This document shows positions 12,001 to 18,000 of a stretch of 39,647 nt of DNA, in pieces (within the stretch, counting starts at the first letter, position 1; each line of letters begins with the position of its first letter). Source of the stretch: a virus. Lineage: Duplodnaviria; Heunggongvirae; Uroviricota; Caudoviricetes. The DNA lies in the IMG/VR virus record IMGVR_UViG_2718218399_000002; one strand, written 5' to 3'. Made by a program: the position numbers.

Positions 12001-15000
12001 ACCTGCGCTGTTTACAGCCATGCTGACACAGTTTCGTGCTGACCTCTCCGTGTTTAACGCGCAGTGCCATGGTGGCAGCGCTGCAGATGTGCCGTGGATT
12101 TGTGGTGACACGACGTATTACTGGAAAAATACATACGCTACCCAGTACGACACCGTGTACGGCGGGTATAAAAACAGGGAGAGTGAGGGCGTTTATTTTG
12201 TGCCCTTCATGACAGACGGTAACGGCGTCAATACCGCCACTAACGCGCCGGCAGAAGATCCGGATATTCCGGCATCAGGATATTACGGTGCGGCATCGAG
12301 AACGAATGGAAACCAGGTATCATCAAACCGCCCGACACATTTCAGTTCATGGGCGCGCAGGAGCATTATTCCGGATCGTCTGGCAACCGCTATTCTGAAC
12401 GCAGCCGGGCGCACCTCAGCCTTCATCAGTGGTAAGGCACCGGAAATCAAACCCTCGCCCGGCGGCAACACGCCATCGGGTCCGTCTGCAGATACGTCCG
12501 TTCGCACAATCTCCCTGCTGCCGGCAGCCGGAGAGGCTGCTGCGCAGGGCTGGAGCATTAAGGATGGCGGAATTCAGTTGTCAGATGGTGTATTTAAGAT
12601 CACCAGGCAGAGCAATAAAACCTGGTCCCTGACGCATCCGGTGGATGACGCAATTACCCTGCTGACACAGGGCGGCAGACTGACCTGTAAGTTCCGCCTG
12701 TCAGGCGCACTGACCAACAATCAGTTCGGGCTGGGGATTTATCTGTATACGGATGCTCCCGTTCCTGATGGTGTGGCGATGACGGGTACCGGTAATCCGT
12801 TCCTGATGTCGTACTTCACTCAGACCACTGACGGCAGGGTGAATCTGATGCATCACAGGAAAGCCGGAAACACGAAGCTGGGGGAGTTCGGCGATTACGG
12901 TAACGACTGGCAGACGCTGGAGCTGGTGTTCACCGCCGGCAGTGCCATGGTTACTCCGAAACTGAATGGAGTGGCTGGCCCGGCATTCCAGGTTATAAAA
13001 GACAGTCTGACACTGGGACTGAATGCGCTGACGCTGACGGATGTTACAAAAAATGCAGCGTATGGCGTTGAGATAGAAAGTCTGATGCTGGAGATAAATG
13101 CACCGGCAGCATAATAAAAAAACAGCCAGTACTGACTTTCGTCGGAGAAGTACTGAACCGCCCCGGGTTTCCTGGAGAGTGTTTTATCTGTGAACTCAGG
13201 CTGCCAGATCATCGTTTCCGATGGAAGCATAATAAGCTTTTTCTGCTTCTGCCGGAGGAGTATGGCCCAGCCTTCCCAGCAATCGTCGATTGTTATACCA
13301 GTCCACCCACGTTAGTGTGGCCAGTTCCACTTCTGCACGGTTTTTCCAGCTCTTACGGTGTATTACCTCCGCTTTGTAAAGACCATTGATGCTCTCAGCC
13401 ATCGCGTTGTCATACGAGTCGCCTGTACTCCCTGTTGATGCCAGTAATCCGGCTTCTTTTAGTCGCTCCGTATAGGCCAGTGACACATACTGAGAGCCTT
13501 TATCGCTGTGATGGATGGTGCCAGACGGACGACGGGCCCACAACGCCTGCTCCAGCGCATCCAGCACGAATGTCGTTTCCATAGACGATGAGACCCGCCA
13601 CCCCACGATGTATCCGGCAAACACATCAATGATAAACGCCACATAGACGAAGCCCTGCCATGTGCTGACGTAAGTAAAATCAGCCACCCACAGCTGGTCA
13701 GGTCGTTCTGCCACGAACTGACGGTTTACGCGGTCGCCTGCGGCAACGGCTTTCCGGCTGATGGTCGTACGGACCTTTTTACCCCGGAGAACACCGGCAA
13801 GTCCCATAACCGCCATGAGACGTGCCACTGTACATCTGGCCACCCTGATTCCTTCCCGTAACAACTGACGCCAGACTTTACGCACACCGTACACCTGATG
13901 ATTTTCATCGTATACGCGCTGTATCTCTCTCTTCAGCCAGTCGTCGTGCTGCGCACGGGCACTGCGTTTATCCGGATGATGTCGCTGTTGCTGACAATGG
14001 TAATACGTTGACGGGGCAATATGCAGTTCGCTGCATACCGGTCCGACCCCGTACTGCTCACGCAGCTTATCCAGCAGTGGCATCATTTTTTCCAGAGGCG
14101 GTCGAACTCCGCCTTCGCAAAATAAGCGGAAGCCTGGCGAAGGATATCGTTACTGCGGCGCAGTTCACGATTTTCACGTTCCAGCTCTTTCAGACGCTGA
14201 CGTTCAGCGCTGGTGAGCCCACCATCACCGCCCCCGGTATCCCGCTCATGCTGGCGAACCCAGACACGCAGAGTCTCCGGCGTACAGCCAATCTTTGGGG
14301 CAATGGAACAAATTGCCGCCCACTGTGAGTCATATTCATCCTGACTTTCCAGAACCATACGAATCGCCCGCTGACGGACTTCGGGGGAAAAACGAGTATT
14401 TTTAGTCATCCTGTTTACCTCTTTCTCAGGGAGTTTAGTCTCCAGGATTTCCGGGGCGGTTCATACTGGCTAAGAAGGATAGTTGGGTTTCACATGATAC
14501 TTATATCTGGCAGTACATTTTCTGACAGACAGTGATGGGTGTTGTCAAGATATTGTGTCATTTATAACCTGAATCAGGGGGGGGAGCCGGAATGTTATCT
14601 GGCATTTTTAGCAGAGCCTGAATGCCATAATCACGGCTCCCGGCGTTGGCCGTCAGTGGGCGACACTGGCGGCTTTTTGTTTTCCTTTACTTTCATTTTC
14701 TGTCGGCGGTGACGGAGACATACATCAGATGGAAAAAATCACAACAGGTGTGTCATACACCACGTCAGCGGTGGGGACGGGATACTGGTTACTGCAGCTG
14801 CTGGACAAAGTCTCTCCGTCCCAGTGGGTGGCAATCGGTGTGCTGGGGAGTCTGCTGTTTGGCCTGCTGACGTATCTGACTAACCTGTATTTCAAAATCA
14901 GAGAGGACCGTCGTAAGGCGGCGCGGGGGGAGTAAAGCGATGAAGAAAAAATACGAACTGGGTGTTAAAGGGATAAATAATTACCCGGATAAGATTACTG

Positions 15001-18000
15001 TTACTGTGGCACCGGAAATTGGTGGGTATCCGTCACTGTTGTTGCCAGATGTGGCGATTAGTCTTGACCGTACTGAAGGTGCCACGCTGGAGTTTTACGA
15101 AGCTGAGGCGAAAAAGCAGGCGAAGCAGTTTTTCATGGATGTTGCTGCCGGGTTATGTGAAGGGGATGGTCCGTTGCCGGAAAAGCGCCCCGTAATTTTA
15201 GAGGCGCAGGATGTGTTGATAACCTACAGAGGAAAACTACCGGGAATAATTACGGGTTCTCTGAAGACTCCACCGCTGGCCTGAAGACTTAACATATCCA
15301 GGGATTTGAAATCGATAAACCCTGATAAATATCCATGAACGCAAAAATCAGATACGGCCTGTCGGCTGCCGTTCTGGCGCTGATTGGTGCAGGGGCGTCT
15401 GCGCCTGAAATCCTCGACCAGTTTCTTGACGAAAAAGAAGGTAACCACACCACGGCATACCGTGATGGTGCGGGTATCTGGACCATCTGCCGCGGTGCCA
15501 TCCTGGTGGATGGTAAACCTGTCGTTCCGGGCATGAAGTTGTCGAAGGAAAAATGCGACCAGGTTAACGCCATTGAACGTGATAAGGCGCTGGAGTGGGT
15601 GGAGCGCAATATTAAAGTACCGCTGACCGAACCCCAGAAAGCGGGGATCGCGTCATTCTGTCCGTACAACATTGGTCCCGGTAAGTGTTTCCCGTCGACG
15701 TTTTACAGACGAATTAATGCAGGTGATCGCAGGGGAGCGTGTGAGGCGATTCGCTGGTGGATTAAGGACGGTGGCAGAGACTGCCGTATTCGCTCAAACA
15801 ACTGCTACGGTCAGGTTTCACGGCGTGACCAGGAGAGCGCGCTGGCGTGCTGGGGAATTGACAGATAAGCAGAATATTTTGCTGAAAAATGCGGTTTGCT
15901 CACACTGGCGGATAACACGAAATCCTGCGAACTGGCAAAAACTAAGTGAATAAAAGTAAAACCCCGTTTGTTGGCCGCAAACGGGGTTTTGTGTTTCTGA
16001 CCTTGAGTAAGGCAAGGGAGAACATGGGAAAGTATAAACGAATTCTGTTGAGATTGACTATGAAAAACGGCCTTGAACTGAAAGCGCCTGTAACTGATGA
16101 CGTCAGCAGAGCGCTGGCTTTTGCTATTAAGTGGGTGGCGGTCGGTATTGCTGTGTCTCCGATGCTGTATGGGCTGGCAAAACTGGTCATTGCGTTGAAA
16201 TCGTGAAGAGGATTAAGCATGTCAGACAAGCTCATAACGCTGGCGAAGATCCTCTGTGTAATCGTCGGCATTTCATTTTCACTAATGCTGGTTGCTATTT
16301 GCTTTTCCACTGCCTGGCGCGTCTTAACTTTGTCATGGCTGGTGGGGTGAGGGGGATATGAACCGTGTTCTGTGTGTGGTGATTATTGTCCTGCTGGTAG
16401 CCTGTGGTGTGCTTAGTCTGGGGCTGAATCATTACCGCGATAACGCCATTACCTACAAAGCGCAACGCGATAAAAAAGCCAGTGAGCTGAAGCTGGCGAA
16501 CGTGACAATTACTGATATGCAGGTACGCCAGCGTGATGTCGCTGCACTTGATGCCAGATACTCGAGGGAATTAGCCGATGCGAGAGCTGAAAATGAAACT
16601 CTGCGTGCTGATGTTGCCGCTGGTCGTAAGCGCCTGCGCATCAACGCCAACTGTCCAGGCTCCTTGCGTAAAGCCCCCATCACCTCCGGCGTGGATAATG
16701 CAACCGGTCCCCGACTGGCAGAAGCCGCTGAACGGGATTATTTCATCCTCAGAGAACGGCTGATGGCAATGCAGAAGCAACTGGAAGGAGCACAGGAATA
16801 TATCCGTACCCAGTGTATACCGTGATGTTTTGTTATGAAGGTGTTACTGGTAACGTTAAGGTAATTTAACAAAGAGTCAGTTCCGGACTTTATAGTGTGC
16901 TCAGTTCATGGCCAAAAACGATTTCTGTGATAAATATTTTGAATATTATTTACAGATAAATGAAGTTGTTCGCATGGATGGAAATATTACAATAGAGTAT
17001 GAAGTATATGTCCGTATTGTATGGGCAGAGAAGGCAAAAACACGGTAATTCCTTGTGTTGCCATTATACCTGATTGGCAGAATAGTTGTTTGGTTTTGAG
17101 TATATAGTCAGCGTTTTTTGTTCAGTAATAGCTCTCTCAAAAAATAATAAAATAAGGTGATTATTTGGGTTTATTATTTGGTTTTTTTGTGTGTTGTTTT
17201 GTTGTTTTTCTGTGATTTATTTTTTATTGTTATTTCATTAAAGGAAGGTAAATTCAGGATAGCAGTCTGTAGATAATCGGAGGTCACTTATGCTACATGA
17301 TCACCTGGCAGAATGTCTGGAGAAAAAAGGACTGTACCGGAGAGCAGCTGAACGATGGGCAAAAGTGATGGTACAGCTAAGTGATGACCAGAAAAGAAAA
17401 GTGGCGGCACAGAAACGAGCAGAGTGTTTGCGTAAGGCGCGCCGGACTCCGGTTTCACCGATGAACCTGACAGAAATAAAACAAGCGGTCAACAGACTAC
17501 ATTCTGAGTTGGGAATGGGATTTGAAGAGCGGCGGGTATTCCGACGATATAAAGGGACAGGAGAACAGAATACGTCCGGAAACGCGCGGTCAAAAAAATG
17601 CTAAAAAATATCTGAGAGCGTTATTGCCTGTTACCATAAGAAAAAGCGACTTTAGTGGTCGCTTTTTGTGTCATATATAAGTCGTTTAAGTAAACCTGTC
17701 TGAACAGGTGCTCTGGTCGTGTTTGTCTTTGTTGGGTACAAATTGAGCATGTTTTTCATTAATTAATCTTCTTCTGCAGGCTTCAATAACCCACGCTGAA
17801 AAATTACCTGAACCTTTCTGATCAAGAGCGATGTTAATTTGTTCAATCATTTGGTTAGGAAAGCGGATGTTGCGGGTTGTTGTTCTGCGGGTTCTGTTCT
17901 TCGTTGACATGAGGTTGCCCCGTATTCAGTGTCGCTGATTTGTATTGTCTGAAGTTGTTTTTACGTTAAGTTGATGCAGATCAATTAATACGATACCTGC

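Follow-up and report, generated by a model that had tools for sequence, protein, structure and literature searches.

In phage 21 (S21/R21/Rz/Rz1) and in prophage DLP12 of Escherichia coli K-12 (essD-rrrD-rzpD/rzoD), the lysis genes abut or overlap. How does a lysis cassette work if additional open reading frames (ORFs) split these genes? This question is raised by IMG/VR record IMGVR_UViG_2718218399_000002, a 39,647-nucleotide (nt) stretch of DNA from a virus of the Caudoviricetes (hereafter the window). There, in contrast to phage 21 and DLP12, one ORF separates the holin gene S from the endolysin gene R, while a hairpin and two further ORFs separate R from the spanin genes Rz/Rz1 (Table 1). 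The original prediction held that lysis is of the phage 21 type and not of the lambda S/R type, based on a short class II pinholin and an endolysin with a signal-anchor-release (SAR) N-terminus. The ORFs of 14729-15868 and the pair that follows them are located exactly where they had been placed, correct to the base, as judged from the ORF list and the raw sequence. We conclude that the locus very probably belongs to the late operon of a lambdoid prophage of E. coli O157:H7, as a lysis cassette that works like phage 21 and not like lambda S/R and has the extra ORFs as cargo. The comparisons below draw on sets of relatives that vary with the question (78, 79 or 84 related loci; 85 or 88 endolysin homologues).

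The holin resembles that of phage 21 in its membrane segments. Its match to PF04971, 'Bacteriophage P21 holin S', spans 63 of the 64 profile positions. EssD of DLP12, the K-12 counterpart of S21 and here employed for comparison in place of S21-68, is identical at 55 of 68 residues (81%), and the same count was obtained for EssQ of the K-12 prophage Qin. The first transmembrane domain (TMD1, approximately residues 5-25, nt 14741-14803) is, like that of EssD, weakly hydrophobic and comprises 52% Gly/Ala/Ser/Thr, while TMD2 (approximately residues 33-53, nt 14825-14887) is the sole segment above the Kyte-Doolittle threshold in both proteins. Residues G37/G40/S41/G45 of TMD2 correspond to G40/G43/S44/G48 of S21, and the glycine zipper described for TMD2 of S21-68 (PMC9025707), G40/S44/G48 in S21 numbering, is conserved at G37/S41/G45. 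In S21, TMD1 exits the membrane, while TMD2 makes heptameric pinholes of ~2 nm (PMC9636201, PMC7278021). The S proteins of Shiga toxin (Stx) phages were classed as P21-family pinholins (PMC10462455), and ~99% of Stx phages possess a predicted SAR endolysin together with a pinholin (Pinto et al. 2021, PMC8136144). Across relatives the holin is under strong purifying selection, with a ratio of nonsynonymous to synonymous polymorphism (pN/pS) of 0.13. Family membership, similarity to EssD, the weak TMD1 and the zipper of TMD2 thus support S of the window as a predicted pinholin, a class II holin of the P21 holin S family.

The endolysin points in the same direction. R aligns with the PDB sequences of R21 (3HDE, 3e-17) and RrrD (4ZPU, 6e-17) from residue 9, which is located inside the hydrophobic N-terminus, to the C-terminus. 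It shares with the phage 21 and DLP12 enzymes the GH24 fold and the E-x8-D-x5-T triad (E35, nt 15437-15439; D44, nt 15464-15466; T50, nt 15482-15484), and the triad as well as all eight cysteines are invariant in 85 close homologues. The basic residues K4 and R6 are followed by 18 uncharged residues (Y7-P24, nt 15353-15406), 61% of which are Gly/Ala/Ser/Thr, compared to ~20% in the TMD of Rz. This layout recurs in 88 homologues from many genera, with 1-3 basic residues in front of 18-21 uncharged ones (~52% Gly/Ala/Ser/Thr). Across Enterobacteriaceae, with Salmonella, Citrobacter, Klebsiella, Yokenella and Hafnia among the genera, the motif LSAAVLxLxxAGAxAxxILDQFLxEKEG is kept, such that the sequence and not hydrophobicity alone is conserved. 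In the AlphaFold2 model, residues 11-30 reach a predicted local distance difference test score (pLDDT) of 94-96 and pack onto the globular catalytic domain, as they do in full-length R21. In Foldseek, the alignment of this model covered 173-174 columns for the full-length structures of R21 and RrrD, compared to 142 for truncated R21, and P22 lysozyme was matched as well. Furthermore, R of phage 933W is identical at 166 of 177 residues (94%), with nearly the same N-terminus, and its clone pZE12-933W-R is listed as 'SAR endolysin' (Chamblee et al. 2022 mBio, PMC9239132). Together with two other clones it forms a panel of SAR endolysins from holin-encoding phages, the release of which is stimulated by the Mu gp25 releasin (PMC9239132). 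With a pN/pS of 0.09, R is under strong purifying selection. Thus sequence and model support R as a predicted SAR endolysin of the R21 type.

Lyz of phage P1 likewise joins an N-terminal SAR segment to a GH24-like muramidase (Foldseek 1XJT, E 3.5e-4). However, P1 Lyz needs a cysteine within this segment for disulfide isomerization, whereas the first cysteine of R is C52 and residues 1-51, including the SAR segment, are free of cysteine, as are the SAR segments of phage 21 and DLP12. A P1-type disulfide switch is thus ruled out for R. The enzyme differs from RrrD as well: it is only ~31% identical, 12 residues longer, and possesses a 7-residue insertion (~151-157) and four extra cysteines. The latter (eight in total compared to four in R21 and RrrD) are located at residues 109, 118, 150 and 157, and C150 and C157 flank the insertion. 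The model is weakest in residues 151-160 (mean pLDDT 49; residues 158-162 below 50). The extra cysteines hint at additional periplasmic disulfides.

Several observations weigh against a cassette of the phage 21 type. One might argue that the N-terminus of R is an ordinary Sec signal peptide which is cut by signal peptidase I, giving a soluble secreted enzyme free of any control by tethering. Its uncharged stretch comprises merely 18 residues, and the arrangement of an n-region (MNAKIR), an h-region (YGLSAAVLALI), a c-region (GAGA) and the site A19-G20-A21/S22 (the slash marks the cut) obeys the -3/-1 rule of signal peptidase. The short segment and this site might therefore lead a topology predictor to call a cleaved signal peptide. 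In addition, the summed biological hydrophobicity of approximately +5 kcal/mol would make the segment a poor stable TMD. However, about half of the 85 close homologues read AGA/P or APA/P and thus have proline at +1, a residue that blocks signal peptidase I at this position. Different genera also share the sequence of the segment, which sets it apart from typical cleaved signal peptides. AlphaFold2 places it in the globular domain in a model that superposes on full-length R21, and the 94% identical R of 933W is not only listed but was used in experiments as a SAR endolysin. Besides, if the active enzyme were freely secreted, a partner of the pinholin type could presumably neither release it nor control it. 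Cleavage is consequently unlikely, and a secreted enzyme appears very improbable next to a SAR endolysin.

Further points on this side concern the holin, the extra ORFs and the state of the prophage. The holin of the window lacks the MKS dual-start antiholin isoform of phage 21 and DLP12: no in-frame ATG was found upstream of S, where the codons read ATA CAT CAG ATG and only the 68-amino acid (aa) form is encoded. At this upstream start most relatives, 933W included, have MYQM without a lysine, while S21, EssD and EssQ have MKSM. The dual start, from which S21-71 is made, an antiholin that is longer and carries one more positive charge, is a trait of S21 itself and not of pinholins generally. 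Without it, control of timing may differ from S21. Constraint on the extra ORFs is only moderate, with a pN/pS of 0.56 for the 114-aa ORF and of 0.43 and 0.68 for the 43-aa and 60-aa ORFs, respectively. In E. coli O157:H7 strain PA20, where the locus includes an identical cassette, the major capsid gene is truncated and an insertion sequence of the IS3 family lies just upstream of the lysis genes. With its truncated capsid gene this prophage is probably defective, and the cassette may consequently never be expressed in a productive cycle.

Despite these points, a P21-family holin together with a predicted R21-type endolysin supports the claim of phage 21-type lysis in place of lambda S/R. The spanins complete the set. 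Rz contains an N-terminal TMD (residues 4-22, hydropathy 3.1), while Rz1 is embedded within Rz in the +1 frame, as in phage 21 and DLP12, and its lipobox reads V-S-A-C20. By family match, TMD and embedded lipoprotein gene, Rz/Rz1 is a two-component spanin.

A phage 21-like cassette is directly backed by the families to which its proteins belong, by their sequence features and predicted fold, by homology to proteins that were handled in experiments and by gene order, while membrane topology, the lack of signal-peptide cleavage, hole size and timing are what we infer by analogy. If the steps of the characterized S21/R21 system apply, late transcripts antiterminated by Q would pass the upstream terminator and express S, the 114-aa ORF, R, the two small ORFs and Rz/Rz1. 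S would enter the inner membrane with two TMDs, of which the weakly hydrophobic TMD1 would then leave the bilayer. TMD2 with its glycine zipper would oligomerize into many small pinholes, through which the proton-motive force would collapse but a folded enzyme could not pass. R would meanwhile be exported by Sec, and its uncleaved SAR segment, rich in Gly/Ala/Ser, would hold it at the periplasmic side of the membrane in an inactive state. Depolarization would free this segment, which would fold back on the lysozyme domain and complete the E35/D44/T50 site, as in R21. Rz/Rz1 would act last, when the outer membrane is breached.

Table 1. Features of the lysis cassette and the evidence by which they were assigned (positions refer to the window).
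Feature	Position	Strand	Length	Assignment
S (holin)	14729-14935	+	68 aa	PF04971, E 8.8e-33; phrog_9876/phrog_20 'holin'
YdfR/DUF1327 protein	14940-15284	+	114 aa	PF07041, E 1.1e-44
R (GH24 muramidase)	15335-15868	+	177 aa	PF00959 Phage_lysozyme, E 1.5e-24
Hairpin, terminator-like	15957-15998	.		terminator scan and RNA fold
60-aa ORF	16024-16206	+	60 aa	phrog_1115, E 6.6e-42
43-aa ORF	16219-16350	+	43 aa	phrog_4906, E 7.3e-24
Rz, inner-membrane spanin subunit	16358-16825	+	155 aa	PF03245, E 2e-46; phrog_13 'Rz-like spanin'
Rz1, outer-membrane lipoprotein spanin subunit	16578-16763	+	61 aa	PF06085, E 4.1e-19; phrog_3198

The origin of the locus is apparent from a stretch of 2.7 kb around the cassette: many E. 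coli O157:H7 chromosomes match it with 100% identity, and at least 80% of it is present in 488 of 5,426 complete E. coli genomes. The O157:H7 annotation by the Prokaryotic Genome Annotation Pipeline (PGAP) covers every ORF of the cassette, as class II holin, YdfR family protein, lysozyme, two hypothetical proteins and lysis protein. In PA20, Q is followed by three tRNAs, TerB, a nanS-p-type esterase, the IS3-family element and the lysis cassette; a PerC-family regulator, the terminase and further genes are located 3' of the annotated 'lysis protein'. The cassette is also shared by Stx1 and Stx2 phages, at 90-94% DNA identity, while the window is free of stx genes. Thus the cassette is already known: it is annotated in RefSeq, it was published at the family level in 2021 and 2023, and a near-identical endolysin is in laboratory use.

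Two further groups of relatives are close to the cassette of the window. In the cassettes of the Stx phages 933W, H-19B and YYZ-2008, S is 92-100% identical to S of the window, a nanS-p esterase gene lies upstream, and YYZ-2008 has the same order of S, YdfR and R. As in the window, Rz of 933W is preceded by a member of the 43-aa ORF family. In contrast to the window, however, its S and R genes are adjacent, YdfR is missing, and S is a 71-aa protein starting with MYQM. The Stx phages further differ by an antirepressor gene (ant) between R and Rz and by the lack of the hairpin and the 60-aa ORF. The window, in turn, has no stx genes and carries an IS3-family element upstream of S. The second relative is Qin of K-12 (essQ-ydfR-rrrQ-rzpQ), which has the same order of holin, DUF1327 protein, lysozyme and spanin and whose RrrQ is 90% identical to R of the window. 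Its YdfR, in contrast, comprises 103 aa, is only ~33% identical and differs in its C-terminal third, the MKSM dual start is retained in EssQ, rrrQ overlaps rzpQ without small ORFs in between, and RzpQ is of the DUF2514 type.

What, then, are the additional ORFs? The one between S and R, for which no function had been proposed originally, turned out in the homology search to be a member of DUF1327, and PGAP names the identical 114-aa protein 'YdfR family protein'. DUF1327 comprises 245 clusters among 5.8 billion, and all those with a named source stem from Escherichia or Shigella. The AlphaFold2 model of YdfR has a pLDDT of 62 overall and of ~70-87 at residues 11-70; three beta strands and a long helix, in the order beta-beta-beta-alpha, are located within residues 6-73, followed by a low-confidence tail (residues 73-114). 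Foldseek revealed no structural relative in the PDB below E 0.2, and faint matches that would suggest a relative resembling a double-stranded RNA-binding domain (probability ~0.2) were not credited. Hydropathy gave no TMD, and YdfR is predicted to be cytoplasmic. A 2026 study found by two-hybrid and pull-down experiments that K-12 YdfR binds the catalytic half (N-terminal domain) of RNase E through its first 72 residues, that it co-purifies RNA, and that its overproduction alters few transcripts (PMC13232886). YdfR of the window has the N-terminal domain in common with this Qin homologue, and most likely it would act on RNA or RNase E in the same way.

Is YdfR nevertheless a dedicated lysis regulator, for example a cytoplasmic antiholin or a factor that targets S or R at their cytoplasmic tails? 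Its gene starts 4 nt past the stop codon of S, in the slot held by R itself in 933W, and is found between S and R in ~75% of close relatives as well as in Qin. A genetic screen cited in PMC13232886 moreover tied ydfR to envelope integrity. However, YdfR is missing from phage 21, DLP12, 933W and the relatives detected outside Escherichia/Shigella, the slot elsewhere holds unrelated or fused proteins, and the protein lacks a TMD and is only moderately constrained. Its presence is also uncorrelated with loss of the longer holin isoform. Among 78 loci, 47 had the longer start together with YdfR, 15 the longer start only, 12 a single start with YdfR and 4 neither, while Qin has both; we thus rejected YdfR as a stand-in for the missing antiholin isoform. 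Neither Pfam nor PHROG revealed homology of YdfR or of the small ORFs to DUF2730 or known antiholins. Since the sole experimental data point to binding of RNase E and RNA, with little effect of overproduction on the transcriptome (PMC13232886), a dedicated lysis regulator appears quite unlikely.

Cargo, in contrast, fits to the variability of the slot. The spacer between S and R varies among E. coli relatives, with 4 nt at the lower end and lengths above 1 kb at the upper. It contains nothing but the 4 nt (933W), the 114-aa YdfR, YdfR with a coiled coil (176-183 aa), YdfR with an extra C-terminal domain (264-329 aa) or the C-terminal protein alone (185-222 aa). Examples of such slot proteins are encoded at L035:2884-3873, L060:3074-3964, L036:3407-3964 and L023:2907-3575 of the related loci; some consist of DUF1327, a coiled coil and a C-terminal domain of ~130 aa (..EWECNRPSFVVSGDAGKITISENGK..), others of the C-terminal protein alone. 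Beyond DUF1327 the larger slot proteins gave no Pfam or PADLOC match, and PADLOC provided no real match for YdfR or the small ORFs either, leaving a role in defense or anti-defense without assignment. Outside Escherichia/Shigella, where an S21-like holin was detected beside this endolysin family, it lies within ~30 nt. There, a detected Rz or S21-like holin usually abuts the endolysin gene directly. This adjacency and the variable slot indicate that YdfR is lineage-specific cargo.

The insertion of ydfR also touches the start of R. The spacers measure 4 nt between the stop of S and the start of ydfR and 50 nt between ydfR and R. From reading the sequence, no obvious Shine-Dalgarno motif for R is present in this 50-nt spacer (15285-15334). 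The coupled start site GGGGAG TAA nnnn ATG is used by R in 933W and is taken by ydfR in the window, thus the insertion may lower or alter translation of the endolysin.

The second junction, between R and Rz, starts with 155 nt of non-coding DNA in front of the 60-aa ORF. It contains a perfect hairpin with a 15-bp stem, flanked by an A-run and a T-run and located 89 nt past the stop codon of R. As RNA it folds with -21.6 kcal/mol (z = -4.6). Of 84 related loci, 66 have the hairpin at this distance from R, with mostly loop changes and stem changes compatible with G-U pairing, while it is absent from the architecture with ant. It is most simply explained as a bidirectional intrinsic terminator that is read through by the Q-modified polymerase. 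At the gathering score, Rfam revealed no known small RNA or cis-element within 14380-17300, and the rimP-leader that appeared on the hairpin at E <= 1 was dismissed as a chance-level match. No plus-strand promoter-like site was found between R and the 60-aa ORF in our scan, and the idea of a moron with its own promoter is thus not supported. We likewise rejected a type I toxin-antitoxin system, formed by a hydrophobic ORF and an antisense RNA running from a minus-strand site (16060-16031) to the hairpin: the promoter match was 9/12, and 3 such sites compare to 4.0 expected in shuffled sequences.

Past the hairpin the spacer is variable as well, with at least six architectures among E. coli relatives: a 32-aa hydrophobic ORF alone, a 37-aa ORF, the 43-aa ORF alone, the 60-aa and 43-aa ORFs (window), three small ORFs, or ant with a 43- or 48-aa ORF. 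Neither of the small ORFs of the window gave a Pfam match, and the PHROG families matched are of unknown function. Hydropathy bears out that both are membrane-like. The 60-aa ORF has a basic N-terminal part of 30 residues followed by a marginally hydrophobic C-terminal segment (~30-58). It was found in only 14 phage records, while its C-terminal module also occurs behind different N-termini. The 43-aa ORF encodes one strong TMD (residues 11-29, hydropathy 2.9). Between its stop codon and the start of Rz lie 7 nt, and it is thus probably translationally coupled to Rz. By tblastn its family was found in 276 phage records, 933W included, mostly without annotation, and most of the Stx-phage records listed likewise carry an unannotated homologue. 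In the 933W locus (L085, 6425-6577), the gap between ant and Rz has no annotated gene but contains an intact 48-aa homologue (MGWLMISDKL...), whose start is restored by an ATG one codon upstream.

Are these small ORFs genes at all? They could be chance frames in a conserved spacer, with conservation reflecting recent ancestry or RNA signals such as the ribosome-binding region of Rz. Both are very short, lack a Pfam family and are mostly unannotated in phage records, their homologues with names are all from E. coli, and a pN/pS of 0.43 and 0.68 does not indicate strong constraint. Several alternative small ORFs moreover end in similar DNA (..CTGGTGG..TGA) before Rz, which suggests a shared junction sequence instead of a shared protein. 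However, no internal stop or frameshift was found in 12 of 12 unique alleles of the 43-aa ORF or in 9 unique full-length alleles of the 60-aa ORF. Variable sites are biased toward the third codon position, with 15/11/23 and 3/2/12 at the first, second and third positions, respectively. Start codons are kept even where the N-terminus differs, as in 933W, every spacer architecture carries a hydrophobic ORF with one TMD, and in 76 of 79 loci the ATG of Rz lies 1-7 nt past the end of an ORF of 25 aa or more. Both ORFs are also annotated by PGAP in O157:H7. We thus regard chance frames as the weaker, though still plausible, explanation. Judged by their sequence, the 60-aa and 43-aa ORFs are probably translated membrane peptides that are co-expressed with Rz.

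By analogy, such peptides possibly modulate the timing of lysis. P2 LysA is a small membrane protein encoded beside endolysin and spanin genes that modulates lysis timing. The releasin gp25 of phage Mu, also a small membrane protein encoded near endolysin and spanin genes, modulates release of the SAR endolysin (PMC9239132). The likeness is one of analogy only: no sequence similarity to Mu gp25 or P2 LysA was found, the ORFs of the window are far shorter with 43 and 60 aa, and they do not match DUF2730.

The neighborhood of the cassette comprises further elements. The IS3-family element (IS629/IS1203-like; 13196-14409, minus strand) consists of orfA (14083-14409), orfB (13196-14086) and an ALIL frameshift pseudoknot (14012-14128). 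Inserted after the esterase gene of the nanS-p type and before the holin gene, it thus sits within the late operon, 5' of the lysis genes. Just 5' of the holin, a strongly structured RNA-like stretch (~14560-14690, plus strand; -53.7 kcal/mol, z = -4.0) has a terminator hairpin (14648-14674) and a T-run at its end. By position only, between the esterase and the holin-lysozyme operon, it can be likened to the prophage small RNAs PasA/PasC, whose location was reported with NC_011356 as an example (bioRxiv 10.64898/2026.05.13.724894). Elsewhere in the window, Rfam detected STnc100 (10958-11130), reported to be structurally related to PasD, the sok antitoxin RNA (6848-7022), with hokD annotated at the corresponding place in PA20, and three tRNA genes downstream of Q (9938-10184). 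Just downstream of Rz, a PerC-family regulator of 104 aa is encoded (17290-17604; PF06069, E 2e-44), and between both genes lies a 46-aa ORF (16908-17048) with a match to phrog_2157.

Taken together, the extra ORFs are lineage-specific cargo of Escherichia/Shigella at two recombination-prone junctions and not core lysis genes. A more far-reaching idea would be that both junctions are dedicated, non-neutral cargo slots of Escherichia lambdoid phages, in which one-TMD peptides before Rz modulate lysis timing or the spanins, while DUF1327 proteins target RNase E or RNA and protect or reshape late transcripts; we consider this unlikely. The conclusion of a phage 21-like cassette itself adds nothing new, since annotated prophages of O157:H7 have the identical sequence and the design of Stx-type cassettes is published. 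The residual interest lies in two of the cargo proteins. DUF1327 is restricted to Escherichia, has no structural relative that we found and was recently linked to RNase E, while the conserved 43-aa membrane ORF is located directly before Rz in hundreds of Stx-phage records, where it is usually unannotated. The lysis genes of these prophages control the release of both Shiga toxin and phage. If DUF1327 or the 43-aa ORF tunes lysis timing or the stability of late mRNA, toxin release would be affected.

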